From contig CAYGDF010000001.1 of NCBI GenBank assembly GCA_964348675.1, positions 7,199-55,462 of the forward strand: 48,264 bases of DNA. The letters run 5' to 3'. The position numbers were made by a program, and so were the translations under genes. How positions within the stretch are numbered: the stretch's first letter is position 1; every line of letters begins with the position of its first letter. Source of the stretch: an uncultured Candidatus Saccharibacteria bacterium. Lineage in GTDB: Bacteria > Patescibacteriota > Minisyncoccia > Phycocordibacterales > UBA5272. Of this stretch, positions 2,956-37,859 are shown piece after piece. The notes under the pieces were generated by a model. That model saw nothing but the letters and a program-made list of their open reading frames with translations. It was not told where the DNA came from and did no database searches.

Positions 2956-3897
2956 ATGATTAGATTTCGTACGTCGATTATTATAACTCTAAGTATATTT
3001 TCTGTTTTTACTTTTTGTATTGTTAAAGCTGATTTAGTTGCTACCACCACCGTAACAATTACTGCAGTAGTAATTGACCCCAACGCACCACCTGAAACAC
3101 CCCCCACCTCTGGTGGCGGGGGAGGTGGTAGCGGAGGTGGAGTAACACTCGGCACACAGTCAGATGTGGCCGTATTCAAAGGGAATGCCTATCCTGGTAG
3201 TATTGTTACATTGCTTAAAAATGGAGTTATCATGACGGAATTACCAGCAAGTCCAGATGGAACTTTTGAAATACACATTAAAAATTTAAACCCAGGCACT
3301 TACAGTTTTGGAATTCGCGCTGAAGATGCAGATCATTTAAAATCCACATTAGATTTATATACTATTTATGTTTCCTCAGGAGTTACTACGGTCGTTGATG
3401 GAATTTTTATTCCGCCAACTATCACAACGGATAAATTAACGGTTAAACAGGGGGATATTATTACGTTGATGGGTAAATCTGTTCCAGATGCTGATTTAAC
3501 TATTTCAATTCACTCTTTAAAAGAGATTGTTAAGAAAACAACTTCAACTAATAATGGGTCGTGGGTGTATAAACTAGACTCCAGCGAACTGGAAATGGGT
3601 CCACATGAGGGGAAGGTTCGAGCTATAACGGACACTGATTTATCTCTTTATTCAGATGCTTTAGCCTTTAATGTCGGCACACAAAATATTGCTAGACCAA
3701 AAATTGCTGGTACACCAAGTTTGGGAAACAGAACGAAATGTGATTTGAACAGTGATTTAAGAGTTAACCTTCTTGATTTTTCTATAATGGCTTTTTGGTA
3801 TAAAAGAAGTGGTTTTCCTGCAAAAATAGATTTAAATAATGACGGTAAAATAAACCTAACAGATCTTAGTATATTGGCTTATTGCTGGACTGGATAA
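2956..3897 (+). CDS. Dockerin-containing Ig-repeat surface protein
   Basis: I prefer the ATG at 2956; the ORF-track start at 2917 is TTG and lies inside the previous gene. N-terminal TM/signal, a Gly-rich linker (SGGGGGGSGGG) and Ig-like beta repeats. The C-terminus carries a duplicated Ca-binding dockerin motif: CDLNSDLRVNLLDFSIMAF and IDLNNDGKINLTDLSILAY. Confidence 0.7.
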   Translation: MIRFRTSIIITLSIFSVFTFCIVKADLVATTTVTITAVVIDPNAPPETPPTSGGGGGGSGGGVTLGTQSDVAVFKGNAYPGSIVTLLKNGVIMTELPASPDGTFEIHIKNLNPGTYSFGIRAEDADHLKSTLDLYTIYVSSGVTTVVDGIFIPPTITTDKLTVKQGDIITLMGKSVPDADLTISIHSLKEIVKKTTSTNNGSWVYKLDSSELEMGPHEGKVRAITDTDLSLYSDALAFNVGTQNIARPKIAGTPSLGNRTKCDLNSDLRVNLLDFSIMAFWYKRSGFPAKIDLNNDGKINLTDLSILAYCWTG

Positions 3898-3899
3898 AT

Positions 3900-4838
3900 A
3901 TGAACTCTTTTACTTTAAAAATATTTTTATCAGTTTTTTTAATAACCTCGATTCAAGCTAACGCGGCCACTTTAGTATTAGATGCCCCGAGCACAGCACC
4001 ATCTAATCGAAAACCTGTAACGATTAGAGTATATATAGACCCAGAAGGTGTGTCTCTTTCTGCTATTTCTGGAACGCTATCTTTTCCAAGTGAATTATTT
4101 GATGTCGAAGGAATTACAACTCAAAGTAGTATTGTATCTATTTGGACTACTCGTCCACAAGTTTCAAGCGAAAGATATTTCGATTCTAGAACAAGGATAA
4201 ACTTCGAAGGAATAATGCCCGGAGGTTTTGTTGGTGTGCGCAGTCCTTATTACGGTGGTGTAAAACCCGGGGTTGTTTTTACAGTAACACTTTTACCAAA
4301 AACAAACGGCGTCGGTAGTTTGTTATTGGACAATATAGAACTACATGCATACGACAGTGAGGGTACGAAGTTGCCAACTGAGAGTTTCAGCACTAACATA
4401 ACTGTTCCTGAACTTACTTCTGTGATGAAAAAAACTGAAATTATTCCACATAAAATAATTAGTAGTACGTTAAAAGCAAATCTTGCGAGAGATCCTCTTA
4501 TAGCAAATAATTCTTGGTATCTAACAGTTCTTGAAGATGAATCTGTGAGACCGATTAATCATATCGAAGTTACGGAGAATGGTGAGTACAATGGAGATAA
4601 GGTTCCTTCCTATCAATGGAAGGTTACAACAAACCCATACGTGTTACTTTATCAGTCACGAGTTAAATATGTGCATGTGAAAGTCTTTTACGAAAATAAT
4701 ACTTACGCAACACAAACCATTCCTCCTGTTGAAAACTCTTCGGCGTTCCAGTATATATCAATTATACTTATAGGTGTAGTTGTTATACTCCTCGTTCTCT
4801 ACCTTCATGGTAAAAACTTTAAAATCTTTTCTTTCTAA
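3900..4838 (+). CDS. Cohesin-like domain protein with a C-terminal TM anchor
   Basis: ATG at 3900, 3 nt after the upstream stop. Signal peptide (FLITSIQANA). Cohesin-like pattern PVTIRVYIDPEGVSLSAISGTLSFPSELFDVEGITTQSSIVSIW...VVFTVTLLPKTNGVGSLLL. C-terminal TM ISIILIGVVVILLVLYL. Confidence 0.55.
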   Translation: MNSFTLKIFLSVFLITSIQANAATLVLDAPSTAPSNRKPVTIRVYIDPEGVSLSAISGTLSFPSELFDVEGITTQSSIVSIWTTRPQVSSERYFDSRTRINFEGIMPGGFVGVRSPYYGGVKPGVVFTVTLLPKTNGVGSLLLDNIELHAYDSEGTKLPTESFSTNITVPELTSVMKKTEIIPHKIISSTLKANLARDPLIANNSWYLTVLEDESVRPINHIEVTENGEYNGDKVPSYQWKVTTNPYVLLYQSRVKYVHVKVFYENNTYATQTIPPVENSSAFQYISIILIGVVVILLVLYLHGKNFKIFSF

Positions 4839-6555
4839 ATTTCTTTCTAAAAATTTTACAATCGTTCATTCGTTAGTTTTGTTTATTATATTTTTGTCGA
4901 GTTTCGGATTCGCAAATGCCACAAATATAACTCTTTCTCCAAACTCCGCAGATTATACAATTGGTAAAACTTATACCGTAGAAGTAAAAGTAAGTAATAA
5001 CCAAGACGATATCAACGGAGTATCTGGGTCTCTTTCTTTTCCGTCTAATTTATTACAAGTTACATCAATTTCTAAAACAGGTTCAATAATAAACACTTGG
5101 GCCGAAGAGCCTATTTTTTCAAATACGGAAGGAGCTGTTTCTTTTGAAGGAGTTATTTTGAATCCAGGATTTAGTGCCCAGTCGGGTAAGATAATCACTA
5201 TATTTTTTAAAGCAAAGGCTTCGGGTGTCGCCAATATATCCTTTAAATCTGGGTCAGTGCTTGCCAATGATGGGAATGCGACAAATGTGCTTGGAACACT
5301 TGGCTCTGCCTCTTTTAGCATATCCCAACCACTCCTAACTGAGACAACTAGTAGTCTTAAAATAACTACAACTTTATCAGAAGCACCAATAATAACTTCT
5401 TCGACTTACCCAAACCAAAACAAATGGTATTCATCTAGAAAAGCATCCTTTGCCTGGGAAGTTCCTTTGGATGTTGTATCTGTAAGCACACTATATGACG
5501 AAAAAGAAAATTCTGTCCCAACTAAATTTTACACTCCACCTATTAATAACAAATCATTTACTTTAGACAGTGACGGAACCATGTACATGCATGTGCAGTT
5601 TAAAACTAAGAGCGGTCTCGGTAAAATTGCCAATTATAAATTCCAAGTAGATACGATTCCTCCACAAAAGTTAGAAGCGAATCTTCCTGATGGAGTTCTT
5701 ACGTATAACCCAACTCCAGAGGTCGCTGTTAGCGCCATAGACGACCTCTCTGGGTTGGATTACATAACCATGAGCGTGGACTCTAAAGAGCCTGTAGTGT
5801 ATTCGATTAATTCTTCAGGTTTATATACTTTGCCTGAACAGTCTTCTGGTAAACACACTGTTTTAATAACCGTTTATGATAGAGCCGGAAATAAAAATGA
5901 AGTATCTGTTGACTACGCAGTACAAGTTATAGATCCTCCTATGATAACTTCTTATAATAAGCGTATCGAATTAGGGTCTCCACTTTCTGTTGGTGGTAAT
6001 ACTTATCCAAATAGAGAGGTCGAAGTTACGTTAACCGACAAGGATGACAATATAATATCGGAAAAGGTCACTTCTGATGAAAATGGAGTCTTTGTTTTAA
6101 AGTGGTCAGGTGAATTACCTATTGGGGTTTATGAATTAAGAGCAAGGGTTACTGATGCTAACGGTATAAAGAGTAAGTTCTCTGACGCGCGTGCAGTGAG
6201 TGTTGTAAACTCGCTTTTACTAAGGGTTAGTATGTTTATAATGAATTGGATATCAATTATATTAATTGTAATAGTTTCTACTGCTATTCTGGCGGCGATT
6301 GCTTGGTATTCGTATTTCCACTTTGGGCGTTTTACTAGAAATGTAAAAAGAAATACAGAAGAGGCAGAAAATACACTGAGAGTAAATATATCTGCTTTTA
6401 GGCGAGATTTAAATGATTTTTATAATCTTCTTCAAGAAACGGAGAAAAAACGTCCACTTACAAGTGAAGAGCAAAGTATTAAGATGATGATAAAAAAACG
6501 CATAGATACGGCAGAAAACGAAATTGCTAGAAAATTAGAGCCAAAAGAGTATTAA
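4807..6555 (+). CDS. Cohesin-like domain protein with Ig-like repeats, a C-terminal TM anchor and a cytoplasmic coiled-coil tail
   Basis: ATG at 4807 overlaps the upstream gene end by 32 nt. Signal (FIIFLSSFGFANA). Cohesin-like segment TYTVEVKVSNNQDDINGVSGSLSFPSNLLQVTSISKTGSII...GKIITIFFKAKASGVANISF. TM WISIILIVIVSTAILAAIAWYSYF, then a charged tail. Confidence 0.65.
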   Translation: MVKTLKSFLSKFLSKNFTIVHSLVLFIIFLSSFGFANATNITLSPNSADYTIGKTYTVEVKVSNNQDDINGVSGSLSFPSNLLQVTSISKTGSIINTWAEEPIFSNTEGAVSFEGVILNPGFSAQSGKIITIFFKAKASGVANISFKSGSVLANDGNATNVLGTLGSASFSISQPLLTETTSSLKITTTLSEAPIITSSTYPNQNKWYSSRKASFAWEVPLDVVSVSTLYDEKENSVPTKFYTPPINNKSFTLDSDGTMYMHVQFKTKSGLGKIANYKFQVDTIPPQKLEANLPDGVLTYNPTPEVAVSAIDDLSGLDYITMSVDSKEPVVYSINSSGLYTLPEQSSGKHTVLITVYDRAGNKNEVSVDYAVQVIDPPMITSYNKRIELGSPLSVGGNTYPNREVEVTLTDKDDNIISEKVTSDENGVFVLKWSGELPIGVYELRARVTDANGIKSKFSDARAVSVVNSLLLRVSMFIMNWISIILIVIVSTAILAAIAWYSYFHFGRFTRNVKRNTEEAENTLRVNISAFRRDLNDFYNLLQETEKKRPLTSEEQSIKMMIKKRIDTAENEIARKLEPKEY

Positions 6556-6599: not shown

Positions 6600-8261
6600 A
6601 TGAACCAACCAGATTATGAGAGTGTTTTGGCGACAATTTCTTTATTAATAAAAGGGGATGTGTCTATCTCAGATATTGATAGAGAAAAAATGGCAAGAGA
6701 CACCAGTTTATTTTATGTTAAACCTGAAATGGTTATCTATCCAAAAGATAAAGAGGACATAAAAAAGATAATCAATTTTGTGGCAGACGCAAAACAAAAA
6801 GGCGTGAATATTTCTATCGCCATGCGCGCCGCTGGAACTTGTATGACAGGAGGACCACTTTCACAGTCTATTGTGATTGACACCACGAGATATATGAATC
6901 ACGTAACAAATGTTACAGAGGAATCAGCGACAGCAGAGCCTGGGGTGTTTTATCGTGATTTTGAGAAAGAAACTCTTAAACAGGGATGGCTCATGCCAAG
7001 TTATCCAGCCTCTAGAGAACTTGCTGCTATTGGTGGAATTGTTTCGAATAATTCTGGCGGTGAAAAGACTCTTGTTTATGGAAAAACTGAAAAGTATGTT
7101 AAGTCTGTCGATGTTGTTTATGCAAATGGAGAAACCGATACGCTTGTACCACTTCGTGAGGAAAAATTAATGGCCAAGATGGAAGAACAGTCTGAAAGCG
7201 GACGTATACATCATGAAATGTATAATCTGATAAACGATAATTACGAGGTTATAATGAAATCTAAACCTTCCGTTTCTAAAAACTCATCAGGATACTATCT
7301 GTGGAATGTTTATGATAAAGAGACTGGTCTGTTTGATTTAAATAAATTAATTGTCGGAAGCCAGGGGACACTTGCTTGCGTGACATCTGCCACTTTAACT
7401 GGGGTAAAGCCAAAAATGCATACTAGAATGATGGTTATGTTTGTTCCTTCAACGATACATTTAGGCGAAATTATTCCAGAAATTTTGAAATTCAATCCAG
7501 AAACACTCGAGTCCTATGATGATCAAACATTTAAAGTTGCTATTAAATTCTTCGGCGATATTGTGCTACGTATGGGCGGAAATATGATTACCCTCGGACT
7601 TAAGTTCTTGCCAGAATTTTGGATGGCCATAACCGGTGGTGTACCAAAAATTATCCTAATGACCGAATTTGCCGAAGATACTGAAGAAGAAGCAACTGCG
7701 AAAGTCAATGCTTGCTTTATGGCTATGGAAAAGTTTAATTGCCCTATTAGGAAAATAAAAAATGAACAAGAAGCAAAGAAATACTGGACGTTCCGACGCG
7801 AAGCCTTTAATCTTTTACGTAGCCACATGAAGGGAACTCGTACAGCGCCAACGATTGATGATCTTGTTGTTCATCCGAATGACCTTCCTCAATTTTTGCC
7901 AAAACTTGATGTGATTTTAAAAAAATACCCAGATCTTATTTATACTATGCAGGGGCATATGGGTAATGCTAACTTCCATATAATTCCGCTCGTCGATATT
8001 CACAAGGAAGGAATTGCCCAAACTCTTCATAAGTTAATGGAAGAGGTTTATGCTCTGGTATTTGAGTTTAAGGGCTCTATGTCAGGGGAACACAATGACG
8101 GATTACTTAGAACTCCATATTTACCGCAAATGTACTCATCAGAAATTATTTCTTTATTTGAAAAGACCAAGGATATTTTCGACCCAAAGAATATATTAAA
8201 TCCAAGTAAAAAAGTGCACGGAGATATGGATTTTGCTTGGAAACATATAGATAATAAATGA
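6600..8261 (+). CDS. FAD-binding (PCMH-type) oxidoreductase, GlcD/D-lactate dehydrogenase-like
   Basis: 553 aa. The N-terminal FAD_binding_4-like region contains RAAGTCMTGG and GGIVSNNSGG. The C-terminal FAD-linked oxidase-like region contains GSMSGEHNDG. Confidence 0.7.
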   Translation: MNQPDYESVLATISLLIKGDVSISDIDREKMARDTSLFYVKPEMVIYPKDKEDIKKIINFVADAKQKGVNISIAMRAAGTCMTGGPLSQSIVIDTTRYMNHVTNVTEESATAEPGVFYRDFEKETLKQGWLMPSYPASRELAAIGGIVSNNSGGEKTLVYGKTEKYVKSVDVVYANGETDTLVPLREEKLMAKMEEQSESGRIHHEMYNLINDNYEVIMKSKPSVSKNSSGYYLWNVYDKETGLFDLNKLIVGSQGTLACVTSATLTGVKPKMHTRMMVMFVPSTIHLGEIIPEILKFNPETLESYDDQTFKVAIKFFGDIVLRMGGNMITLGLKFLPEFWMAITGGVPKIILMTEFAEDTEEEATAKVNACFMAMEKFNCPIRKIKNEQEAKKYWTFRREAFNLLRSHMKGTRTAPTIDDLVVHPNDLPQFLPKLDVILKKYPDLIYTMQGHMGNANFHIIPLVDIHKEGIAQTLHKLMEEVYALVFEFKGSMSGEHNDGLLRTPYLPQMYSSEIISLFEKTKDIFDPKNILNPSKKVHGDMDFAWKHIDNK

Positions 8262-8275
8262 TATAATATAAAAAT

Positions 8276-8710
8276 ATGAACCCATTCAACATTATTTATT
8301 CCTTTTTTGATAAATTAGAAGACCGTATACGTGGAACTTTGTCGCGCCATGCATTTATTTATACTTTTATCGGAGGAACCGGTTTGGTTTTATTTTGGCG
8401 AGGTGTTTGGCACGTTGCTGACGCGCTTGAAAATCTAGATGGTTTTTCTAGAGTTTTGTTTTCTCCGATGGGATCAGTCATTTTCGGATCTGTAATTTTA
8501 CTTGCTACAGGGCTCTTTGTTTCAGTTTTTGTTGGAGATTCAATAATTATGTCTGGAATCAAGAAGGACAAGAAAATAATTGATAAAACAATCGACGAGG
8601 TTGAGTCCGAAAGAACAGAAGTCGAACAAACTCTCGCACTTCTTCTTGATGTAAAAAGTGAAGTTGAGAGATTGGAAGGAAAGGTAAGAGATCATAACAG
8701 AAATAATTAG
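8276..8710 (+). CDS. Small membrane protein with a C-terminal coiled coil
   Basis: Two predicted TM helices (FIYTFIGGTGLVLFW, VIFGSVILLATGLFVSVFV) and a charged helical tail. A strong terminator follows. Confidence 0.6.
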   Translation: MNPFNIIYSFFDKLEDRIRGTLSRHAFIYTFIGGTGLVLFWRGVWHVADALENLDGFSRVLFSPMGSVIFGSVILLATGLFVSVFVGDSIIMSGIKKDKKIIDKTIDEVESERTEVEQTLALLLDVKSEVERLEGKVRDHNRNN

Positions 8711-8721
8711 TTAAAGCATTA

Positions 8722-8756
8722 AACAAAAAAACACCCAATTGGGTGTTTTTTTGTTT
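8722..8756 (+). terminator. Rho-independent terminator
   Basis: aaaaaaacaccc-aatt-gggtgttttttt: a GC-containing stem followed by a T-run, directly after 8276..8710. Confidence 0.8.
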
Positions 8757-8880
8757 TAAACACGAAAGTTGTAAGAAAGTTGTTATTTGCTTCGTCAGTA
8801 GTCGTAGGTTCTCCAGTTCGGATGGAAGTTACTTTTTTAGTTTTGGTTAGGTGTCTTTATTATAAATTTATTTATATAAA

Positions 8881-10278
8881 ATGAAAAAAACATATAGTAT
8901 TTCTCGTCTACTGTTTATGGTTTATTTGGCTTTTGCTTTTGTCGTTCCGATGTACGCTTATGCCGAAGCCACAACTACCCCGGAATGTATTTCAGGAAAT
9001 AGTTTTGATGATTTTAATTTAGGGTCTGTAAATGGACAAGGTGGGTGGCGTGTGACTGGAACGTATGATCAAGAAGTTGTTTCTAATATTTTCGGATATC
9101 CAACTTTTGGTTGTAAGTCACTTCGTATATCAGATGCCACAACATCGGTCTTTATATATGACCAGATTTTCTCCACTTCTACTGTAAATGAAGTTGGAGA
9201 AACTGACGCCCAAAGTGGTGACGCTCCCATTGGTGTGCGTCAAACTTACTTTGAAGCGCAATTTGATCTTGCTTCTGTAACGCAAAACGAACAACCAGGA
9301 ATGCATTTATCGGTATCTCCTGACAGGGGGGATGGAACGCGCATGAGTTCATTAGGGTTCGAAGATACATTCTCAGGAATAAATATATATTTCGATGATG
9401 TTATAGGAACAAGTAGTCCGGTAACTTTCAGAGAAACTCAAATCGCTACGGCTCTCACACGATCACTGCCGCATACCATTAAATTTTCTATGGATTTTCT
9501 AGACGGAGAAGGAAATGATGTGGTTAGTATTTACGTGGATGGTGTTCTTGCTCACACGGGAACAAGTTGGGAGAATTTCTACAGGTTTGATCAAGAGGCC
9601 TTTCCTTCACCTAACAACACCAGTCGCACGGTAAATTCTTTAGTTTTTTATGAAAGGGGAACAGCCTCATCATCTGATTTATCCAATGGGTACCTAATAG
9701 ATAACGTGTTGTTAGCAACTGGCACCACAACACTTTCTGTTTCTACAACAACCACCGCAACTTCTACCCAAGCCACTAGTACTGACAGCACCAGTACCTC
9801 TACTCCGCCTATTGAAACAACGCAAAGAGGTGGAGCGGGAGGACCAAATGGATATCCTGGATGTATTGATAAAACAGCGACTAATTATGACCCTACAGCC
9901 ATCTACACGGGAACGTGTACATACGCTACATTGGAGCCGGGTTTAGTTTTGGGTGTTTCAACTTCTACAGTATCTAATTCTACGAGCACCGCAACAACAA
10001 GTGGAAATGGTCCCTTTATAACCATCTCTTCTCTTTCTTCTTCGTTTGATTCAAAAAATAAACACAACTTTCTTAGTGATTTAAAGTTAGGTTCACGTGG
10101 TGAAGATGTTTCTTGGTTACAAGAAATTCTAATGACAGAGGGATTTCTTATCTACAATGGAACAACAAGTTATTTTGGACCACTAACCCAATCAGCGCTT
10201 AAAAAATGGCAAGCAAAGAACGGTATTAATTCTACCGGATATTTTGGAAGACTTTCAAGAGCGTTTCTGAATAGGTAA
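8881..10278 (+). CDS. Secreted protein: lectin/LamG-like N-domain, Thr/Ser linker, C-terminal peptidoglycan-binding domain
   Basis: Signal peptide (LAFAFVVPMYAYA). Thr/Ser-rich linkers. The C-terminal PG_binding_1-like motif is LKLGSRGEDVSWLQEILMTEGFL...YFGPLTQSALKKWQAKNGINSTGYFG. Confidence 0.65.
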   Translation: MKKTYSISRLLFMVYLAFAFVVPMYAYAEATTTPECISGNSFDDFNLGSVNGQGGWRVTGTYDQEVVSNIFGYPTFGCKSLRISDATTSVFIYDQIFSTSTVNEVGETDAQSGDAPIGVRQTYFEAQFDLASVTQNEQPGMHLSVSPDRGDGTRMSSLGFEDTFSGINIYFDDVIGTSSPVTFRETQIATALTRSLPHTIKFSMDFLDGEGNDVVSIYVDGVLAHTGTSWENFYRFDQEAFPSPNNTSRTVNSLVFYERGTASSSDLSNGYLIDNVLLATGTTTLSVSTTTTATSTQATSTDSTSTSTPPIETTQRGGAGGPNGYPGCIDKTATNYDPTAIYTGTCTYATLEPGLVLGVSTSTVSNSTSTATTSGNGPFITISSLSSSFDSKNKHNFLSDLKLGSRGEDVSWLQEILMTEGFLIYNGTTSYFGPLTQSALKKWQAKNGINSTGYFGRLSRAFLNR

Positions 10279-10302
10279 GTAGAGCAATAGTAAACTCGTA
10301 TA

Positions 10303-10393
10303 AGTGTGGCTACAAATATTTTCCGCCGTCGCTCAAAAATCTCGCAGCCCGCCCCTCGTGGTTTTGATTGCTATCAAAACATCACTGCGGCCC
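10303..10393. repeat. Conserved non-coding element, copy A (homologous to 46943..47034)
   Basis: The core 10325..10389 aligns without gaps to 46967..47031 at 53/65 identities by hand. The 8-bp/4-nt hairpin (10361..10380) differs from copy B only by two compensatory base-pair swaps. Confidence 0.6.
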
Positions 10394-10407
10394 TCCACAA
10401 AGCACAA

Positions 10408-10427
10408 AACCTGCCACAGGGCAGGTT
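10408..10427 (-). terminator. Hairpin terminator downstream of tRNA-Ala
   Basis: The stem is aacctgcc/ggcaggtt. On the minus strand it is followed by TTTTGTGCTTTG, and it lies 13 nt past the tRNA 3' end. Confidence 0.55.
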
Positions 10428-10439
10428 GTTGTGTCTTTG

Positions 10440-10512
10440 TGGACCCTAGGAGAATCGAACTCCTCACCTCCGGAGTGCAAAACCGGCGCTCTACCATATG
10501 AGCTAAGGGCCC
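10440..10512 (-). tRNA. tRNA-Ala (anticodon UGC)
   Basis: Reverse complement: GGGCCCT TA GCTC ATATGGTA GAGC G CCGGT TTTGCAC TCCGG AGGTG AGGAG TTCGATT CTCCT AGGGTCC A. It folds as a cloverleaf with anticodon TGC and the G3:U70 alanine identity pair. CCA is not encoded. Confidence 0.9.
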
Positions 10513-10605
10513 TTCTGGAAACAATGTCTATAATACTACCATATCCATAGGAACAAGAAAAGAGTCTTGTGGTAAAATGTACACTACATTATCAACAATA
10601 ACCTT

Positions 10606-10935
10606 ATGGGCAAAATACACAAAATTTTAATAAACTCTCTCCCGATAATTTTAATGGTTGGACTCATACCTTTGATTGCAAACGACTACGTTCTTTCCGT
10701 GGTATACATGACCATAATTATAGTCGCTCTTCTTATAAAGAAAGAAGTACATGATATTACAGCTCTTGTTTTAGGTTTCTTTATAATGATAGTTTCAGAA
10801 TATTTTTTCATTAAAACAGGTGTGGAAACTTTTAACAGAAATTCTCTTTTTAATATGATGCCTCTTTGGTTGCCTCTCTTATGGGCTTACGGTTTCGTCG
10901 CCATTAAACGCACCCTTAACATATTAAATGCTTAA
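10606..10935 (+). CDS. Small integral membrane protein
   Basis: 109 aa with three to four hydrophobic helices. Confidence 0.55.
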   Translation: MGKIHKILINSLPIILMVGLIPLIANDYVLSVVYMTIIIVALLIKKEVHDITALVLGFFIMIVSEYFFIKTGVETFNRNSLFNMMPLWLPLLWAYGFVAIKRTLNILNA

Positions 10936-11001
10936 ATCTTTGCAATATTAACCAAAGCAAGGTATCCTTGTTGCTTAACGGGTGCTAACTAAACAAAAAA
11001 T

Positions 11002-11136
11002 ATGTCAGATGATACAACAAACAATGTGGACACAACAGTAACTTCATCTGTGGAAGAGCCTGTAGTTTCTGCTCCCAACGAAACACCTGAGTCAGTTCCA
11101 GAGACAACTGAAGTTATGGATGCTCCGACAGCGTAA
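11002..11136 (+). CDS. Possible small acidic peptide (44 aa)
   Basis: An ATG..TAA ORF below the ORF-track cutoff: MSDDTTNNVDTTVTSSVEEPVVSAPNETPESVPETTEVMDAPTA. It sits between a gene end and a terminator, and I saw no clear RBS. Confidence 0.25.
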   Translation: MSDDTTNNVDTTVTSSVEEPVVSAPNETPESVPETTEVMDAPTA

Positions 11137-11160
11137 AAAGTCTTTACGTTTAAGACAAAT

Positions 11161-11190
11161 AATAAATCCCCAATTAATTGGGGATTTATT
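11161..11190. terminator. Bidirectional hairpin terminator
   Basis: aaatccccaatt/aattggggattt is a perfect palindrome flanked by A/T runs, between convergent genes. Confidence 0.7.
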
Positions 11191-11875
11191 ATTTCCAGAG
11201 ACTGGTTCCAATTTTATCGTCAGCAAATCTGTGGTTTACATCACGGTGTATCATCTCGTCTTTCAGTGTGGCTTTTATTACATCGACTAAACGTGCATCG
11301 CTGTTTAAATTCCAATAACTCTTGGCAAGTTGAGGCGCCTCTACATTTTCATGGATACTATTTTCAATTAATGCTAAGTAGTGTTCATAACTATTAATTG
11401 CTTCTTCTTCAAAGTATCCAACGACTCGGTGGGCCGTGGCTGGAGAAATTAAATACAAAATAAAGTACAAATGGTAAAAGAAAAATTGGACTATAAAAAT
11501 GAGGACCTTTTCAAAAGAGTTCGGTTTTGCTATTTCGCTGTATACCAGTAAATGGATACGTTCGTTTTCTGCTTCGTCCAAAAGAGTTTTTATCCAGCCT
11601 CTATCATCCCTTATAAACCTTAGAGATTTTAAATGTTGAAGTAACCCTCCAACCATTCCTGGCACAGAAGCAATCGTTTCAAGTACCACAGCCCGATGAC
11701 AGTATCTGTTTTGAAACAAAAAATCAGCGCAAGCAGCCGACGCTCGCACTATATTTTTAGCAACAGTATCTCTTACTCCAGACGGAGTGTGTCTGTAACT
11801 TTCTCTATGAGTTCCTATGTGAGGGGTGACTTCTTTCAAGTTCTCAAACATCACTTCGTCCTTTTCGGTTATCAT
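11189..11875 (-). CDS. Alternative oxidase (AOX, di-iron ubiquinol oxidase family)
   Basis: The four AOX iron-binding regions are visible: VLETIASVPGMVGG, AENERIHLL, YFEEEAINSYEHY, LKDEMIHRDVNH. I prefer the ATG at 11875, since the ORF-track start at 11896 is TTG. The ATG at 11851 is also possible. Confidence 0.8.
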   Translation of the reverse strand: MITEKDEVMFENLKEVTPHIGTHRESYRHTPSGVRDTVAKNIVRASAACADFLFQNRYCHRAVVLETIASVPGMVGGLLQHLKSLRFIRDDRGWIKTLLDEAENERIHLLVYSEIAKPNSFEKVLIFIVQFFFYHLYFILYLISPATAHRVVGYFEEEAINSYEHYLALIENSIHENVEAPQLAKSYWNLNSDARLVDVIKATLKDEMIHRDVNHRFADDKIGTSLWK

Positions 11876-11940
11876 AATAGTAAGTATATCCCACAAAGGT
11901 TACTTTTTGGAAGTCTTGTAAATATGATAGAATAAAAGAC

Positions 11941-13236
11941 ATGTTAGATATTAAATTCATCCGCGAAAATAAGGAAATTGTTGCACAGGCAATCAGAAAC
12001 AGAAACAGAGAAGTTGACCTAGATCTTCTCCTTTCTCTTGCTGATGAAAAAAAGGGCATACGACAGAAACTTGATGAACTTAATCAGAAACGAAACGAAG
12101 CAGCCAAATCAAGAAATATTGAGGAAGGTTCTCGGTTAAAAGGGGAGGCTGAACAGGTTGAAGCGGAGTTTGCAGAATCTGACAAGAAGTACTTCGCTCT
12201 TATGATGAAAGTGCCCAACATTACCTCTTTAGATACGCCAGTTGGTAAAGATGATACAGAAAACAAAATTATTCGTTCGTGGGGAACTCCACCTCAATTT
12301 TCATTTACACCGAAAGAGCATTTTGAACTCGGCGAAGCACTTGGATTTTTGGACATTGAAACTGCAGGACGAATTTCTGGTTCACGCTTTGCGTATATTA
12401 AGGGGGATCTAGCATTGCTTCAATTTGCACTTGTACAAAAGTGCTTCCAGATTCTTACTGATCAGGAAACACTTGAAACAATTGCGAAAGAAGCCGGAGT
12501 ATCCATTTCTGTTGCTTCATTTATTCCAGTCATTCCGCCTGTTTTCGTAAAACCAGCAGTGCAAAATCGCATGGCTCGGTTCCTAACCTCAGAAGAACAC
12601 TATATGTTCCCGAATGATGATTTGATGCTCGTGGGAAGTGCTGAACACACACTTGGACCGATTCATATGGATAGTGTTATTGATGAAAAAGACTTACCCA
12701 TTCGATATGCTGGATACTCAACAGCCTTTCGGCGCGAAGCGGGGTCATACGGCAAAGATACTAAAGGTATTTTAAGGCAACATCAGTTCGACAAGATAGA
12801 GATGGAAGTATTTTCACTTCCAGAAAATGGATTAGAAGAGCAAAATTTTCTCGTTGCCATCCAGGAACATATCTTGAAAACATTGAAACTTTCTCACCAA
12901 GTTGTTATGGTTTGCACTGGCGATATGGGGTTCCCAGATTATCGTCAGATTGATGTTGAGACTTGGATGCCAGGACAGAATACTTTCCGAGAAACTCACA
13001 GCGCTGATTATATTGGTGGATTTCAGGCTCGTCGCTTGAATACGAAAGTTAAGCGAAATGATGGTACGGTGGAGGTTCTACACATGAATGATGCTACTGC
13101 GATTGCGGTGGGGAGAATGTTGATTGCAATTATTGAAAACTATCAGCAAGAAGATGGAACGATTAAGGTGCCTGATGTTTTAGTTCCTTTCATGGCAGGT
13201 AAAACCGTAATTGGTAAACCGTTTCGTTCAAATTAA
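11941..13236 (+). CDS. serS: Seryl-tRNA synthetase
   Basis: MLDIKFIRENKE start, N-terminal coiled coil, and class II motif 2 FRREAGSYGKDTKGILRQHQFDKIE. 431 aa. Confidence 0.9.
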   Translation: MLDIKFIRENKEIVAQAIRNRNREVDLDLLLSLADEKKGIRQKLDELNQKRNEAAKSRNIEEGSRLKGEAEQVEAEFAESDKKYFALMMKVPNITSLDTPVGKDDTENKIIRSWGTPPQFSFTPKEHFELGEALGFLDIETAGRISGSRFAYIKGDLALLQFALVQKCFQILTDQETLETIAKEAGVSISVASFIPVIPPVFVKPAVQNRMARFLTSEEHYMFPNDDLMLVGSAEHTLGPIHMDSVIDEKDLPIRYAGYSTAFRREAGSYGKDTKGILRQHQFDKIEMEVFSLPENGLEEQNFLVAIQEHILKTLKLSHQVVMVCTGDMGFPDYRQIDVETWMPGQNTFRETHSADYIGGFQARRLNTKVKRNDGTVEVLHMNDATAIAVGRMLIAIIENYQQEDGTIKVPDVLVPFMAGKTVIGKPFRSN

Positions 13237-16025: not shown

Positions 16026-17030
16026 ATGACACAGTATGTAGCGCTTTATCGCAAATATCGACCGCAATCCTTCAAAGATGTTGTGGGACAAGACCAAGTG
16101 GTCACTTTACTTGAGAATTCAATTAAACAAAAAAAGATTGGGCACGCATACCTATTTTGCGGAGGACGTGGAACCGGAAAGACTACAGTTGCTAGAATTT
16201 TTGCCAGAGACATTGGTTGTAACCCCGAAGACATAATTGAAATTGATGCAGCAAGTAACCGTGGTATTGACGAAATCCGCGAACTTCGCGATGCGGTACG
16301 CACCGCACCTTTTTCATCTCCTTATAAAGTTTATATTGTAGATGAAGCCCACATGCTCACTAAGGAAGCGGCGAACGCTCTTCTTAAGACTCTAGAAGAA
16401 CCGCCGTCTCATGTTGTGTTTATTTTAGCTACCACTGATCCAGATAAATTACCACAGACGATTGTGTCTCGTTGTCAAAAGGTTGAGTTTAAACAGCCTG
16501 ACATTCAAACACTCGTGGATAGATTGCTATATGTTGTAGAGCAAGAAGTTAGATCACTTGAAAAAGAAAGCGCTGAATTAATCGCACGTCATGGTAAGGG
16601 TTCGTATCGTGATGCACTTGGAGTGCTTGAGCAAATTCTCGCTGTATCTGAAAAGAAAATTAATCATGAAGTTGTAATGGCGACTTTAGGAACTCCCCAC
16701 GAAGAAACACTTTTAGAGTTACTAGACGTAGTTTGCCAGAAAAATAGTAAAGGAATAATAGATAAACTGAAAAGACTGAAAACTAGAAATTCTTCTGCAC
16801 TTCGCACTTATGATGAATTCATAGAACTAGTTAGACAAGGACTTCTAATTAGAATAGGCCAGTTAGATGATAAAAAGGCCGAACTTACTCGCATTGCTAG
16901 CACCTATCCTCATACCATAGGCTCAAAACTAGTGCTAGAACTGCTAGAGAAGCGTCATTTGTTAGAAGTGTCGGATAGCCATTCCTGGACTGCTTTTGAG
17001 GCAGTTTTGCTGTCTGTTGTGGAACAGTGA
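16026..17030 (+). CDS. dnaX: DNA polymerase III gamma/tau subunit (short form)
   Basis: YRPQSFKDVVGQ, Walker A GGRGTGKTT, Walker B VDEAHML, sensor SRCQ. Confidence 0.9.
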   Translation: MTQYVALYRKYRPQSFKDVVGQDQVVTLLENSIKQKKIGHAYLFCGGRGTGKTTVARIFARDIGCNPEDIIEIDAASNRGIDEIRELRDAVRTAPFSSPYKVYIVDEAHMLTKEAANALLKTLEEPPSHVVFILATTDPDKLPQTIVSRCQKVEFKQPDIQTLVDRLLYVVEQEVRSLEKESAELIARHGKGSYRDALGVLEQILAVSEKKINHEVVMATLGTPHEETLLELLDVVCQKNSKGIIDKLKRLKTRNSSALRTYDEFIELVRQGLLIRIGQLDDKKAELTRIASTYPHTIGSKLVLELLEKRHLLEVSDSHSWTAFEAVLLSVVEQ

Positions 17031-17491
17031 TTATGGATGAAATAGAATTAAAAAACTTTATATTTGAAGCAAGCCGAGCCACTTACGCTTCTGGGGATGA
17101 ATCTCTTAAACATAAAGAGGGTGATGGTTCTACGACTATTGTTTATGAAAAGGGTGGTTATAAAATGCATGACAACTATTTTGGTGGTGAGCCATATTGT
17201 GGTCGTGAGGTTATTTTTTTAGAGAACAAAGCGATTTGGATGATGGTTTATTATGGATTAGTCTATGAGGGCGTTGTTCACGCTGATGTATATAAGTTTT
17301 TAATGTCAGCGCTTTCTAATAATACTAACGAAATGCCGTATCGAGGGCCGACACTCTACGAAAAAGATAATTGGAGATACGAAAACAGTTTTGTGGGTGA
17401 CGTGAGTAATCTTTCAGGTACAGAAAAAATCTTTAAAGATAATCTTTGTGTTTATGAGGCTAGTTATCTTGGCGGTTTTGTGGACAGATAA
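17027..17491 (+). CDS. Hypothetical cytoplasmic protein (DUF5680-like, recall-level)
   Basis: 154 aa. It overlaps the dnaX stop by 4 nt (ATGA-type coupling). Confidence 0.5.
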   Translation: MIMDEIELKNFIFEASRATYASGDESLKHKEGDGSTTIVYEKGGYKMHDNYFGGEPYCGREVIFLENKAIWMMVYYGLVYEGVVHADVYKFLMSALSNNTNEMPYRGPTLYEKDNWRYENSFVGDVSNLSGTEKIFKDNLCVYEASYLGGFVDR

Positions 17492-17535
17492 GAAAGCGAT
17501 AGCACTTTTAAGTTTTAATTAGTACACTTATTGCA

Positions 17536-18615
17536 ATGTATAAAAGACTATCTTCTCTAACAAAACACACGGCACATTTAACTACGATTATTTTTCTTGC
17601 CGGATTTTTGTTTGATGCTTTTTTGCTACCAGACATAGAAGATCCGATAGCGAGATATGTTGGTTTCGGATATTTGTTTTTAATTGGACTCCTTATCATG
17701 TTTCGAGAGTGGGTGGTGTCACGAAACACAGCAAGTGAGTTTGAACAAAAAGTTTACTCATTTGCCACTTTCGGCATTTCTTACTTTTCTGGTTCTGCGT
17801 TATCGTTTGTTTTTATATTTGCTATACGTAGCGCTCAACTGTCTGTTTCTTGGCCACTATTTTTAATTTTGCTTCTTTGTATCTTTGCAAATGAATTTGT
17901 ATCTACACATGATTTTAGATTCGCTTTAGACATAGGGGTTCTGTTAACTGCACTTTTATTCTTTGTAATATTTAATGCACCACTTTGGTTAAAGGTTCAA
18001 AATGATACAACCTTCGCCTTAGCTGTTGGCATCACTGTTTTAATATCTGTCACTTATATTTATTTACTGAAATTTTCTTCCGAGAATGCTCTTTTTCAAG
18101 CACCGCGTGGATACGCCTTGGCCGTTGGAATTCCAATGTTTGTGGCTATGCTTTATTTTCTAAACGTAATGCCAGCAGTACCTCTTTCACTTAAAGATGC
18201 CGGTGTTTATCATAATGTGATTAGAAACGGTGAAGGAGATTTTATCGCTCAAAAAGAAAGAGATGACAGAAAGTGGGCAAAATACCGCACACCGATTTAT
18301 CATTTAATGCCCGTAGATGATGGCGTCTTCTTTTTTAGTGCCGTAAACGCTCCAGCAGAATTAACCGCCCCTATTTCATACGTTTGGGAATATTATGACA
18401 ATGAAAAAAAGAAATGGTTTACATCTGGCGTGCCAATTTCTTTTACTTTAGAAGGTGGCAGAGAAGACGGTTATAGAGCGTACTCTCAAAAGCAAAATAT
18501 AACTGAAGGTTTGTGGCGAGTTACAGTTAAAGTTGGTAATAAGCGTGTCATCGGTAGGGTAAAATTTTTAGTGACAAGAGAAGGTGTGCCGGAGGTAAAT
18601 GAAGTTAAACTCTAG
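17536..18615 (+). CDS. Polytopic membrane protein with a C-terminal soluble beta domain
   Basis: Six to seven TM helices in the N-terminal 220 aa, then a Trp/Tyr-rich domain (YVWEYYDNEKKKWF...GLWRVTVKV). Confidence 0.55.
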   Translation: MYKRLSSLTKHTAHLTTIIFLAGFLFDAFLLPDIEDPIARYVGFGYLFLIGLLIMFREWVVSRNTASEFEQKVYSFATFGISYFSGSALSFVFIFAIRSAQLSVSWPLFLILLLCIFANEFVSTHDFRFALDIGVLLTALLFFVIFNAPLWLKVQNDTTFALAVGITVLISVTYIYLLKFSSENALFQAPRGYALAVGIPMFVAMLYFLNVMPAVPLSLKDAGVYHNVIRNGEGDFIAQKERDDRKWAKYRTPIYHLMPVDDGVFFFSAVNAPAELTAPISYVWEYYDNEKKKWFTSGVPISFTLEGGREDGYRAYSQKQNITEGLWRVTVKVGNKRVIGRVKFLVTREGVPEVNEVKL

Positions 18616-33556: not shown

Positions 33557-34582
33557 GTGGACTTACCAATCGAAGAATACTACGCTCACGCTCTCCAGAT
33601 GCACGAGCGCGAGTTACAAATACGCGACGAAATTGTTGGGTGGTTGCCCGACGACATCATCGACGCTCACGCTCACTGCAACCTGAAGGAACATGTACAT
33701 GGTGTAGACCCGCGAGCTCGCGGCCATATGCTGTCGACTTTCCCGTATTTCCCACTCGAAATGTCGAAGCAACTTCATGAGATGTTCTTTCCTGGCAAGC
33801 GGATTCGTTCGCTTCGCTTTCCGAAAACATTTCGTGGAATTGACCACCGTTCCGCCAACCAGTATCTGCTTCAGAACAGCCCTGAAGAAGACCGGATCGC
33901 ACTCTTTGGTTTACCGGAAGATGTTGCGTACACCAACGCTATGCTGGCCCATCCGAGAGTGTCCGCACTTAAGATGTACTGGTCGTACGTAGACCCAACG
34001 GCAAAGACAATCTACGAGTTCTTCAGGCCAGAAATCCTTGAAGAGAGTCAAGCGCGTGACATTCCAATAGTCCTCCATCTGCCGCGAGTTTTAGTGGCAA
34101 GCATCAACGACTTGGTGCAAGTCGTAAAAGACTTTCCGCGACAGAGAGTGGTCTTGGCTCACCTTGGCTTGTCCAAGATGGTTATTCAGGGACTGGAGGA
34201 GACAATGAAAACGGCGGCGGCCTTTGACAACGTTTTCATGGACACGGCACTTAACCCTTCGGCAGAAGTTGTCTCGCTCGCACTTAAATGTTTCGGTAAG
34301 GAGCGAATTCTGTTTGGTTCTGACGAACCTCTCAGCCTGATTCGTTCGGTCGCGTACAGACACCCGCAAAAAGGGGAGCGAATCGTCACTGACTTCAAGT
34401 ACCACTGGGTGGACAGCGACGAGGTCAGGGAATACGGGCATCTCGCCCAAAGTGCGACGCACGCTCACTGGCAGTCGATGTTGGCGATAAAGAGGGCTGT
34501 GGAACTTCTTCCTCGAGACCAACAAGAAGTTACCAAGGATTGGGTTTTTCGGAAAACCGCCGAGGCCGTGTATAACTTCTAG
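33557..34582 (+). CDS. Amidohydrolase_2-type metal-dependent hydrolase (TIM barrel), with compositionally foreign GC
   Basis: IDAHAHCN, PIVLHLPR, VLAHLG and FGSDEP motifs. The GTG at 33557 is preceded by GGGAGA 7 nt upstream; the track start is TTG at 33542. Two sampled lines give about 52-53% GC. Confidence 0.7.
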   Translation: MDLPIEEYYAHALQMHERELQIRDEIVGWLPDDIIDAHAHCNLKEHVHGVDPRARGHMLSTFPYFPLEMSKQLHEMFFPGKRIRSLRFPKTFRGIDHRSANQYLLQNSPEEDRIALFGLPEDVAYTNAMLAHPRVSALKMYWSYVDPTAKTIYEFFRPEILEESQARDIPIVLHLPRVLVASINDLVQVVKDFPRQRVVLAHLGLSKMVIQGLEETMKTAAAFDNVFMDTALNPSAEVVSLALKCFGKERILFGSDEPLSLIRSVAYRHPQKGERIVTDFKYHWVDSDEVREYGHLAQSATHAHWQSMLAIKRAVELLPRDQQEVTKDWVFRKTAEAVYNF

Positions 34583-34603
34583 AGACCACTGACCAATAGT
34601 TTT

Positions 34604-34631
34604 AAAGGCTTCGCGTGCGAGGCCTTTTTTT
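34604..34631. terminator. Hairpin terminator
   Basis: aaaggcttcgc-gtg-cgaggccttttttt, between the convergent amidohydrolase and HIT genes. Confidence 0.7.
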
Positions 34632-35097
34632 ATTGTTCTCCTTTAATTTTCTTAGCGAGAGCGCTAAGTTTTTCGTCGTCAGCTCTTAAAAAATCGTGCG
34701 AAGATATGTATCCTTCGTACTTATCAAAATACTTACTTACATTTGACGAACGCTTCTCCCAATCATTTGCCCTAGTTCCATGCATTGGAAATAATTTTGC
34801 ATGAATATGATCAACACCAAAACCTTCAAAGATCATACCTGTGCGACCAACGTCTTCTAATTTTTCATCTAAAAGTTTTGCAACTTTTTTTGTAGCATGC
34901 ACCAAACCATCAATTACACCATCCTCTAAATCAAACAAATAACTGCCATGGTGTTCTTTTGTTATCACGACCGAAAAACCTTCCGTGTTAGGAAATATAG
35001 AGAGAAAAGCAAGATGCTTATCGTCCTCCCAAATTTTATGGCAAGGCGCGTCTCCTTTGGCTATTTTGCAAAAAATACAATCTTCTTTGGTTGTCAT
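34630..35097 (-). CDS. HIT-family protein with a variant triad
   Basis: N-terminal CIFCKI, plus the HIT region GVDHIHAKLFP (H-I-H-A-K, where the canonical third His is Lys). Low GC like the host background. Confidence 0.7.
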   Translation of the reverse strand: MTTKEDCIFCKIAKGDAPCHKIWEDDKHLAFLSIFPNTEGFSVVITKEHHGSYLFDLEDGVIDGLVHATKKVAKLLDEKLEDVGRTGMIFEGFGVDHIHAKLFPMHGTRANDWEKRSSNVSKYFDKYEGYISSHDFLRADDEKLSALAKKIKGEQ

Positions 35098-35206
35098 AAC
35101 CTTATTATAATAGTCTTGTATAAAAAAAGAAAGTCTGGAACATTTATAGTCCAGACCTCGTTCGCTTTGCAGTTTTCCAACTACTTCTCTTTTTAAGACA
35201 AACCCG

Positions 35207-36007
35207 TCAGAGGTTTCGGCTGATTTTCTTTTTTATTGTGTAAATTCCTCCACGAGGAATTTGAAGCATCAGCCTCTCATCTCCCGCCGGTATCTTTCTG
35301 TACACCTTGACGAAATAACTCAGATATTTACCGTTTTCATTGAATAAAGATAGATATCTAAGCCAATTACTTCTGGTGTCTGGGGACATCTGGTTAATGT
35401 ACTGATCAACTCTTGTCTTGTCACCAGGGGAGACCTCATAGTCAGCCTCGTACTCTGTGGTGAGTGGAAGGTTGTTGAACAAATTCGACCAGCTTGCCCT
35501 GTCTCCTTGGGGAGTCAAATTTGTGCCAATTGTTTCGTTGAAATCAGCGACAAGTTTTGGGGGCGGAGTGGAATGGTAGTAGTAAAGCGCTACCAGCATA
35601 TACCCCCACGGTCTCAGCACACGCAACGCCTCAGCAATATGCTGTTTCCTTATTTCTTCGGGAATAAAAGGAAGATGCCCGCCTATGACAACATGACTGA
35701 AGGAATTGTCCTTGAAGGGTAAGTTAGACGCATCTCCCTTCTCGAAAGAAACCTTGTCTGCGATAAAGCGATCAACGTTTTCCTTGGCGGACCTGACGCT
35801 TTCTTCATGAAGGTCCACACCGACACATCTTGCCCCTGTGTAGCGTGCCATTTCGATGGTTATGAACCCCGTTGAACAACCCACCTCGAGAACCGTAGAG
35901 TTTTCGTACATAAAGGAATTCATGGCCCATTCCTTCACGGTCACGTAGCTCCCAGGGGGTGTATTGACTTGGCCAGACCTTGCAACAGTAGACAGATACT
36001 CATTCAT
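35207..36007 (-). CDS. Class I SAM-dependent methyltransferase
   Basis: Motif I VLEVGCSTGFITIEMA and motif II-like CVGVDL. I prefer the ATG at 36007 because AGAGG lies 7 nt upstream; the longer ORF starts at 36058. One sampled line gives about 47% GC. Confidence 0.7.
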   Translation of the reverse strand: MNEYLSTVARSGQVNTPPGSYVTVKEWAMNSFMYENSTVLEVGCSTGFITIEMARYTGARCVGVDLHEESVRSAKENVDRFIADKVSFEKGDASNLPFKDNSFSHVVIGGHLPFIPEEIRKQHIAEALRVLRPWGYMLVALYYYHSTPPPKLVADFNETIGTNLTPQGDRASWSNLFNNLPLTTEYEADYEVSPGDKTRVDQYINQMSPDTRSNWLRYLSLFNENGKYLSYFVKVYRKIPAGDERLMLQIPRGGIYTIKKKISRNL

Positions 36008-36099
36008 TGGATGACCTCTATAAGAAGTTGAAAGAACACGATTTCTATTAGACCACATAAATCATGTTATTATATAAAATGAGATAAAGCCAACTAGAC

Positions 36100-36483: not shown

Positions 36484-36486
36484 AAA

Positions 36487-36512
36487 AACTGGGGCAACTA
36501 GGGCCCCAGTCT
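36487..36512 (-). terminator. Rho-independent terminator of the GC-rich aaRS operon
   Basis: On the minus strand the stem CTGGGGC/GCCCCAG is followed by TTTTTTT. It abuts the stop codon of the low-GC gene 36100..36483. Confidence 0.7.
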
Positions 36513-36531
36513 CGACTCAGCCCGCTGGCAT

Positions 36532-37839: not shown

Positions 37840-37859
37840 GACTTTCTCCGGTAACTGAA

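Follow-up and report, generated by a model that had tools for sequence, protein, structure and literature searches.

The locus described here lies within a 48,264-nucleotide (nt) stretch of DNA, hereafter the window, from an uncultured Candidatus Saccharibacteria bacterium (assembly GCA_964348675.1, contig CAYGDF010000001.1, positions 7,199 to 55,462 of the forward strand). Successive open reading frames (ORFs) of the window, all on the plus strand, were designated g1 to g6, and the loci fetched from genomes were numbered L001 to L038. Three tightly packed genes, g4, g5 and g6, occupy positions 2956-6555 and encode a cohesin-dockerin set that follows what appear to be the genes of a pilus. g4 (2956-3897, 313 amino acids, aa) encodes a secreted dockerin protein, a proposed pilus-base adaptor, recognized by its Dockerin_1 and Big_6 matches. 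g5 (3900-4838, 312 aa) encodes a short membrane-anchored cohesin protein, assigned from an AlphaFold2 model and its Foldseek matches to cohesins, and g6 (4807-6555, 582 aa) encodes a long one, assigned from Cohesin matches in its orthologs and from alignment to g5 with hhalign. The domain identities, topology, operon membership and conservation of g4-g6 are established; the function that we propose for them, to hold the pilus at the membrane, is argued below.

The stop codon of g4 (TAA, 3895-3897) and the ATG of g5 (3900) are separated by a 2-nt spacer, and g5 and g6 overlap by 32 nt (4807-4838). An earlier reading of this DNA from its letters alone (the original prediction) had given the first junction as 3 nt, which is incorrect, and the second as a 32-nt overlap, which is correct; the peptide strings that it quoted are all present in plus-strand ORFs. 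Junctions were tight or overlapping in L002 and L003 as well as in the window, and the g5/g6 overlap in both of these loci is 53 nt. To judge from gene spacing alone, g4-g6 may be translationally coupled. Genetic code 25 was considered since one relative is labelled Gracilibacteria, and was ruled out: the standard code applies because TGA terminates 6 of the 37 long ORFs and the genes of interest stop at TAA or TAG, g4-g6 all at TAA.

The final 52 residues of g4 (3739-3894) comprise two F-hand segments, DLNSDLRVNLLD and DLNNDGKINLTD, which make up a C-terminal dockerin with two F-hand calcium loops, two helices and an invariant terminal WTG. Pfam Dockerin_1 (PF00404) matched g4 with a score of 33.4 bits (E = 5e-8), above the gathering cut-off of 22.9, and matched 33 of 34 g4 orthologs (best E = 6.2e-11), which confirmed the duplicated dockerin originally predicted at the C-terminus of this gene. 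The segment also aligned to the solved dockerins 2y3n_B (E = 1e-3), 1daq and 2mte. Its calcium loops, D263-D274 and D292-D303, lie in tandem segments of ~22 residues and follow the F-hand loop pattern D-x-N-x-D-x-x-x-N-x-x-D, then a helix. The two segments, VNLLDFSIMAFWY and INLTDLSILAYCW, are near-symmetric, like those of dual-binding-mode dockerins. Loss of the calcium-ligand positions in orthologs had been named in advance as grounds for rejecting the dockerin; the columns were kept across the 34 orthologs. In loop 1 the ligands were counted as D263 in 33, N265 in 34, D267 in 34, N271 in 31 (with Asp in 3 more) and D274 in 34; in loop 2 the counts were D292 in 33, N294 in 29, D296 in 32, N300 in 22 (with Asp in 8 more) and D303 in 34. 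WTG formed the C-terminus of the protein in all 34. Cys262 and Cys310 were both present in 18 of the 34 orthologs and both missing in 15, a pattern that suggests a disulfide clasp joining the start and end of the dockerin in one clade.

The remainder of g4 is a secreted Ig-domain protein (Ig, immunoglobulin) with a distinctive N-terminus. By sequence reading, a signal peptide spans residues 1-25 (MIRFR...CIVKA, 2956-3030), with hydrophobic residues 7-25 and then VKA. It is followed by a free N-terminal beta-strand, TTTVTITAVVI (3043-3075), which is our proposed donor strand and carries a motif, [VI]x[VIL]x[AG]x[VI], found in orthologs. A flexible Pro/Gly-rich linker (DPNAPPETPPTSGGGGGGSGGG, 3076-3141) comes next, likewise assigned by sequence reading; its low-complexity Pro/Gly character is kept in the ortholog alignment A3, and it provides a tether of ~20 residues between the strand and the first Ig domain. 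Two Bap-like Ig domains of the Big_6/Big_13 type occupy 3163-3690: Big_6 was matched by 32 of 34 orthologs (best E = 8.2e-10), and the g4 family profile matched the Bap structure 7dm0 (E = 1.3e-6). g4 has no transmembrane (TM) helix, its C-terminal end being the dockerin. Inserts between the N-terminal strand and the Gly-rich stretch were seen in the g4 orthologs of L021, L022, L024, L026, L027, L029, L033 and L037, and consist of an Fn3 domain (Pfam fn3, E = 3e-9) or of Cys-rich repeats of the CGNxxxExGExCD type (DUF4215-like). No NCBIfam model matched g4 or g5.

The original prediction also assigned a signal sequence and a cohesin-like segment to each of the next two genes, and both features were borne out, the cohesins by indirect means. 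Pfam Cohesin (PF00963) gave no match in g5 or g6 themselves at E up to 1, nor in 53 g5 orthologs; g5 has no Pfam match of any kind. When g5 and g6 were searched directly by sequence against the PDB and Pfam, nothing for cohesin was returned, and the assignment required family profiles, hhalign and a structure model. Thus the proposed profile check succeeded for Dockerin_1 in g4, failed for Cohesin in g5 and g6 themselves, and succeeded for Cohesin in 14 of 58 g6 orthologs (best E = 3.6e-7). The AlphaFold2 model of g5 had a mean predicted local distance difference test score (pLDDT) of 89, and when it was compared with the PDB by Foldseek the first 33 matches were all cohesins. The best of these was 2w1n (E = 3.9e-10), a cohesin-Fn3 double module; 2vo8 and 2jh2 gave a target TM-score of 0.71, and 2xdh, a non-cellulosomal cohesin of Archaeoglobus fulgidus, was also matched. 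Identity of g5 to solved cohesins was 10-17%.

The g5 cohesin domain comprises residues 22-172 (3963-4415), as supported by Foldseek and by a joint profile of both families (A7). A second beta domain, Fn3/Ig-like and common to g6, follows at 4452-4724; it was placed by model strands at residues 191-274, the Foldseek match to 2w1n and the hhalign alignment with g6. The C-terminal TM helix (4743-4814; hydropathy peak 2.79 at residues 282-300, model helix 284-310) is followed by a 7-residue tail. In g6 the cohesin domain comprises residues 36-185 (4912-5361), supported by ortholog Cohesin matches, hhalign to g5 and profile A7. The stalk (5374-6201) consists of the second beta domain shared with g5 and then Ig-like domains (Big_3_2/DUF7743-like and Big_13). 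Big_13 was the only Pfam match of g6 (39.4 bits, cut-off 27), and the g6 family profile matched Bap 7dm0 (E = 2.6e-9). The TM helix of g6 lies at 6238-6312 (hydropathy peak 2.71 at residues 481-499). Each of the two proteins thus has one signal peptide and one C-terminal TM helix. They had been described as ending in a single TM helix, which holds for g5 with its short tail; g6 instead continues for ~80 charged residues, a conserved cytoplasmic tail (6313-6552, alignment A2). This tail has invariant L542, R549, L551 and E555 and a conserved consensus throughout, is probably helical, and has no equivalent in g5.

Sequence comparison of the two families indicated that g6 is a paralog of g5: hhalign aligned ~260 columns, covering the cohesin and the second beta domain, with a probability of 99.5% (E = 1.8e-22). 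Joint profile A7, built from 74 cohesin domains of both families, matched the solved cohesins 5m2o_A (E = 1.7e-5), 5aoz (E = 3.5e-5) and 3l8q (E = 0.0099). The motifs most conserved between the families were SGxxSFPxDxL, WxxxP and FEGIxPGGF, which fall in model strands at residues 53-63, 81-88 and 97-110. These would correspond to strands 3, 5 and 6 of the canonical cohesin face that binds dockerin. Members of the g5 family are proteins of ~310-330 aa that carry no Pfam annotation. The family is large, because a search of 1.84 billion cluster representatives (50% identity) with the g5 profile yielded 5,002 at E up to 1e-3 and 2,626 at E up to 1e-10.

Cohesin-dockerin pairs are the glue of cellulosomes, and the presence of both domain types would by itself allow a minimal cellulosome-like enzyme scaffold for polysaccharide degradation; the window offers nothing further in favor of such a scaffold. 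g4 and g5 do share the basic design of the type I cellulosomal pairs of C. thermocellum (1ohz) and C. cellulolyticum (2vn5), namely the same two-F-hand dockerin and the same cohesin beta-sandwich fold. Cellulosomes, however, combine enzymes, a carbohydrate-binding module (CBM) and a multi-cohesin scaffoldin, none of which is found here, and g5 and g6 are anchored by their own TM helix rather than by an S-layer homology domain or sortase. No glycoside hydrolase (GH) or CBM was present among the scanned ORFs of at least 120 aa across the window, as had been predicted for the vicinity of the genes, and no further dockerin or cohesin was found in its 48 kilobases (kb) by hidden Markov model search or regular-expression search. 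In L003 the set is followed, at a distance of a few kb, by GH15 and GH57 genes, yet these have no Dockerin_1 match and are on the opposite strand. GH15 and GH57 enzymes usually act on intracellular glycogen or starch. A cellulosome is excluded because the sole dockerin is on a protein of Ig domains, each cohesin protein has a single cohesin, and neither a CBM nor a multi-cohesin scaffoldin nor an enzyme with a dockerin was present among the scanned genes. We therefore consider an enzyme scaffold of this kind extremely improbable, and agree with the original prediction that the set is non-cellulosomal. Other cohesins outside cellulose degradation, as g5 and g6 are, include those of A. fulgidus (2xdh) and of Clostridium perfringens GH84C/GH33 (2w1n, 2vo8, 2jh2), which were among the best structural matches to g5. 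These modules take part in toxin or glycosidase complexes or have unknown partners. We know of none reported in a pilus operon or with a signal peptide-cohesin-stalk-TM layout.

The three genes upstream of g4 (3-2948) appear, on sequence evidence, to be the gene set of a Pam-type donor-strand-exchange pilus. The original prediction had placed the cohesin-dockerin genes directly downstream of a fibre-like module; the position is right, and the Pam-type identity of that module had been missed. The Pam pilus is a donor-strand-exchange pilus specific to the Candidate Phyla Radiation (CPR; Patescibacteria), described in a June 2026 preprint (10.64898/2026.03.03.709456). In its pilins a linker donor strand joins an N-terminal sandwich to a C-terminal domain that is Ig-like and truncated, and in the solved filaments the linker is the donated strand (10.64898/2026.03.03.709456). 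PamT is the tip pilin, and PamC and PamD are PapD-like chaperones with a TM helix (10.64898/2026.03.03.709456). In the window, g1 (3-656) is the C-terminal part of a putative pilus tip protein, cut by the window edge: its frame is open to base 3 and runs off the 5' end. It scored 76.4 bits (cut-off 55) on the NCBIfam model of the Pam pilin C-terminal acceptor domain, NF058581 (CPR_Pam_pilin_C), and gave E = 3e-13 with the PamT model. Full-length g1 orthologs are ~320 or ~1100 aa long (~1050-1120 aa in L004-L019).

g2 (804-1892) is the predicted Pam-type major pilin. Its signal peptide is followed by an N-terminal beta-sandwich, then a linker strand (NDTVALTATVQQ) and finally an Ig-like acceptor domain at the C-terminus. 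g2 matched NF058581 with E = 5.7e-13 and 49.2 bits, under the cut-off of 55, and the model was matched by all 34 members of the g2 family (best E = 7.2e-25). The AlphaFold2 model of g2 (pLDDT 86) has two beta domains, and the linker block, residues 181-190, averages a pLDDT of 55. A conserved linker with low confidence in the modelled monomer is consistent with filament building by strand insertion. Foldseek comparison of the model with a PDB copy in which no Pam pilin structure was found returned only generic tandem Ig adhesins (ClfA, SdrE, BslA). The C-terminus of the pilins bears a conserved GxYxxxLxYxATAN[FY] motif (LVYVATAN[FY]).

g3 (1968-2948) encodes a chaperone-like protein whose beta-rich ectodomain lies between a signal peptide and a C-terminal TM helix (residues 291-309). 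This is the architecture reported for PamC and PamD, and g3 adjoins the pilins; no PapD match for g3 was obtained by sequence search. Pfam WxLIP_PGBD (DUF916) was matched by 14 of 29 g3 orthologs (best E = 2.1e-8), and the g3 family profile gave a weak match (E = 0.58) to the E. faecium WxLIP1 structure 9i1y. Firmicutes carry WxL/WxLIP (DUF916-DUF3324-TM) surface-protein clusters (PMC10599100), and these resemble the present locus in that large and small proteins share a C-terminal domain and a TM-anchored, beta-rich partner is predicted to insert a strand. They have no cohesin or dockerin, and the g2-family pilins lack Trp-x-Leu motifs. A WxL-cluster identity of the upstream genes was considered on account of the g3 matches and dropped, because no WxL domain or motif was found (no Pfam WxL-domain family in any of 34 pilin-family members at E up to 0.05) and NCBIfam then named Pam pilins. 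The g3 matches nevertheless hint that the CPR Pam chaperones may be evolutionarily linked to the WxL/WxLIP surface clusters of Firmicutes.

Conservation of the locus was assessed by a scan of one genome per species, which returned 35 loci. Their labels are of the Patescibacteria group (including Paceibacterota, Jorgensenbacteria, Magasanikbacteria, Wolfebacteria, Komeilibacteria and Liptonbacteria) or the unspecific 'uncultured bacterium', apart from four metagenome-assembled genomes labelled Gammaproteobacteria, which we take to be mislabelled. The labels of the fetched loci are of the Paceibacterota type, whereas Pam is reported to be most prevalent in Saccharimonadia and Microgenomatia (10.64898/2026.03.03.709456). 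Where the contig allowed, the gene order was g1 (of either length), one to four copies of g2, g3, g4, g5 and g6, and this full order recurred under the labels Paceibacterota, Saccharibacteria, Magasanikbacteria and others. The distant loci, including those of Jorgensenbacteria, Liptonbacteria and Komeilibacteria, kept g3 to g6. Among the fetched loci, 31 extended far enough upstream to show the gene immediately before the dockerin gene, and in 30 of them, all but L037, this gene was g3. All 37 loci had exactly one dockerin gene with cohesin genes directly after it; most complete loci have two of these, and L032 and L037 have three. These results indicated that the cohesin-dockerin genes are a fixed part of the Pam operon in the 35 genome loci.

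Copy number and context of the g6-type gene differed among loci. L032 has a second copy 4 kb downstream (16719-18458), L037 has two tandem copies (9881-12361), and L001, a 775-kb Paceibacterota contig, has a lone g6-type gene at 7977-9761. In the window, g6 is followed by a gene for a flavin adenine dinucleotide (FAD)-linked oxidase (FAD_binding_4 and FAD-oxidase_C, 6600-8261), and the same gene follows g6 in nearly all close relatives, L001 included. This arrangement probably reflects synteny within the lineage and not a functional link.

Based on this context, we propose that g4-g6 anchor the pilus of a Pam-type operon to the membrane, as a split anchor joined non-covalently, and we give this full model an even chance of being correct. 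g5 and g6 would be type I membrane proteins that hold their N-terminal cohesins off the membrane, with a short stalk in g5 and a long one in g6. g4 would be secreted by Sec, and its C-terminal dockerin would bind, in a calcium-dependent manner, to the cohesin of either g5 or g6 or of both. The N-terminal strand of g4, on its Pro/Gly tether, would act as a donor strand and enter the last pilin (g2) at its open, Ig-like C-terminal domain. Insertion of this strand would end polymerization and join the filament to the cell. The original prediction, in which the set served an episymbiont that builds or attaches a surface structure, fits this Pam-type operon context.

The closest counterpart to the proposed anchor is PamR, an RbmA-like protein in which an N-terminal strand precedes two FnIII domains and a TM helix, and which has been proposed as the terminator and anchor of Pam pili (10.64898/2026.03.03.709456). 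Like g4-g6, PamR is found in an operon with Pam pilins and membrane-anchored chaperones. PamR and g4 are alike in having an extra N-terminal beta-strand and then two Ig/FnIII-type domains, and the proposed job of PamR and of g4-g6 is the same, capping the last pilin and tying the filament to the membrane. They differ at the other end: PamR has its own C-terminal TM helix, while g4 has a dockerin in its place and would obtain its anchor from two separate cohesin proteins, a comparison based on the published description of PamR. The N-terminal domain of g5, a cohesin, also sets it apart from a PamR-type anchor. g4 together with g5/g6 would be a two-polypeptide, non-covalent equivalent of the role proposed for PamR in Ca. 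Mycosynbacter amalyticus. No PamR-like protein was detected in the fetched loci, and no such gene lay between or after the pilin genes. A further analogy is PapH of the chaperone-usher pathway, a dedicated last subunit that donates its strand to the preceding pilin and halts growth. PapH, however, stays at the outer-membrane usher and lacks a dockerin, whereas CPR cells lack an outer membrane, and an usher was not found.

The pairing of g4 with g5 and g6 is suggested by the constant company of the two gene types, one dockerin gene adjoining cohesin genes (two in most cases) in every one of the 37 loci. If the pairing did not hold, the cohesin-like domains of g5 and g6 might instead bind the pilins or the chaperone, as an usher-like assembly platform, and the g4 dockerin might be a calcium-stabilized module with another ligand, such as a cell-wall polymer. 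The position of such a platform is vacant, as no dedicated trans-envelope assembly machinery was found for Pam pili (10.64898/2026.03.03.709456), and the cohesin proteins of the window are themselves under the Pfam Cohesin threshold. The co-occurrence of the genes argues against this reading, as does the specificity of the cohesin fold and sequence matches. So too does the location of the most conserved g5 and g6 motifs on the face that, by the strand assignment we assume, binds dockerin. In favor of this reading, dockerin-like modules with no known cohesin partner are reportedly common, according to Peer et al. in 2009. Taken together, an assembly platform appears quite unlikely.

The link between g4 and the pilus, central to the proposed anchor, rests on the g4 N-terminus, that is, on the strand, the tether and the PamR-like layout. 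The strand reads TTTVTITAVVI in the window and xNITISATVLQ in relatives, and [VI]x[VIL]x[AG]x[VI] was present at this position in 23 of 37 orthologs. Its pattern, [VI]x[VIL]xAxV, is that of the g2 pilin linker (consensus DDTVxVSATVxQ), and among the non-pilin proteins that the operon encodes only g4 carries a free strand flanked by signal peptide and Pro/Gly linker. A position-specific scoring matrix (PSSM) of the g2 linker found its best match on the g4 strand in about 22 of 37 orthologs, with weak scores. The likeness of the g4 strand to the pilin donor strand is therefore no more than suggestive.

Several observations weigh against the anchor model. The median best PSSM score was -1.6 against -5.3 for shuffled sequences, whose 95th percentile was 1.9, so that the match is not significant; it is because the scores of the g4 strand overlap those of shuffled sequences that we rate the full model no higher. 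The strand motif is, moreover, a generic beta-strand pattern, which occurred 0.3-3.3 times per 1000 aa in the other operon proteins and in the neighboring g7, used as a control. In the distant loci, the small pilin-like genes upstream of g3 match the Pam models weakly or not at all, although their products have the same C-terminal motif as the pilins. In L001 the g6 ortholog stands alone, with no g1-g5 nearby, next to the FAD oxidase gene. The dockerin-cohesin pairing is deduced from adjacency and co-occurrence, and the keeping of two cohesin proteins is left unexplained by the present findings.

Some of these points would be better accommodated by the main rival to a pilus anchor, independent surface display, in which g4 is a Bap-like Ig adhesin docked on g5/g6 that is co-transcribed with the pilus and not physically joined to it. 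The domain identities of g4-g6 fit surface display equally, the Ig domains of g4 are Bap-like (Big_6), and the lone g6 ortholog of L001 and the statistically weak donor-strand likeness also favor it. In addition, SEML1_0315, a dockerin-domain envelope protein unconnected to pili, was reported as essential by transposon sequencing in the saccharibacterium Southlakia epibionticum (PMC10633639). Surface display does not, however, account for the conserved free N-terminal strand and Pro/Gly tether of g4 or for the conserved place of the genes after those of the pilins and the chaperone, and it would leave the operon with no pilus terminator or anchor. We regard it as unlikely, though it has to be taken seriously, and retain the split pilus anchor as our working model.

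Other features of the window lie well away from the g1-g6 genes. A GC-rich island at 34000-40000 (GC 0.45-0.53, compared with about 0.37 elsewhere) may be horizontally acquired DNA. It contains, alongside a methyltransferase, two class II aminoacyl-tRNA synthetase paralogs of the Asp/Asn/Lys type, arranged in tandem on the minus strand (36532-37839 and 37860-39176). A defence-like gene group follows at 41045-46881 and comprises an IrrE-like M78 peptidase and a PF14350 'Beta protein' on the plus strand (41045-43394), and a GmrSD_N-HNH nuclease (44682-45785) and an EcoRI-type adenine methylase (45787-46881) on the minus strand.

Neither the word cohesin nor the word dockerin occurs in the Pam preprint (10.64898/2026.03.03.709456), and a literature search on dockerin or cohesin in CPR, Parcubacteria or Patescibacteria found no description of the g4-g6 module. 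The arrangement, a proposed anchoring end of a Pam-type operon that lacks PamR, was thus met in neither the preprint nor the remaining literature searched. A large fraction of bacterial diversity falls within the CPR. Only a few of its members, mostly Saccharibacteria, have been cultivated, and these live attached to host cells (PMC10633639), and the 2026 Pam work only begins to answer how CPR cells build and hold filaments when outer membrane and usher are lacking. Our results raise the possibility, to which we assign somewhat less than an even chance, that cohesin and dockerin were recruited across a large part of the CPR to couple the pilus to the cytoplasmic membrane, through a dockerin-tipped terminator and TM-anchored cohesins of two heights. 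If this is true, it would be the first cohesin-dockerin pair in pilus biogenesis and would provide a calcium-dependent, non-covalent joint that is in principle releasable, and with it a second, modular solution to pilus anchoring. It would also give a function to the large unannotated protein family to which g5 belongs, and would extend cohesin-dockerin biology well beyond polysaccharide degradation.

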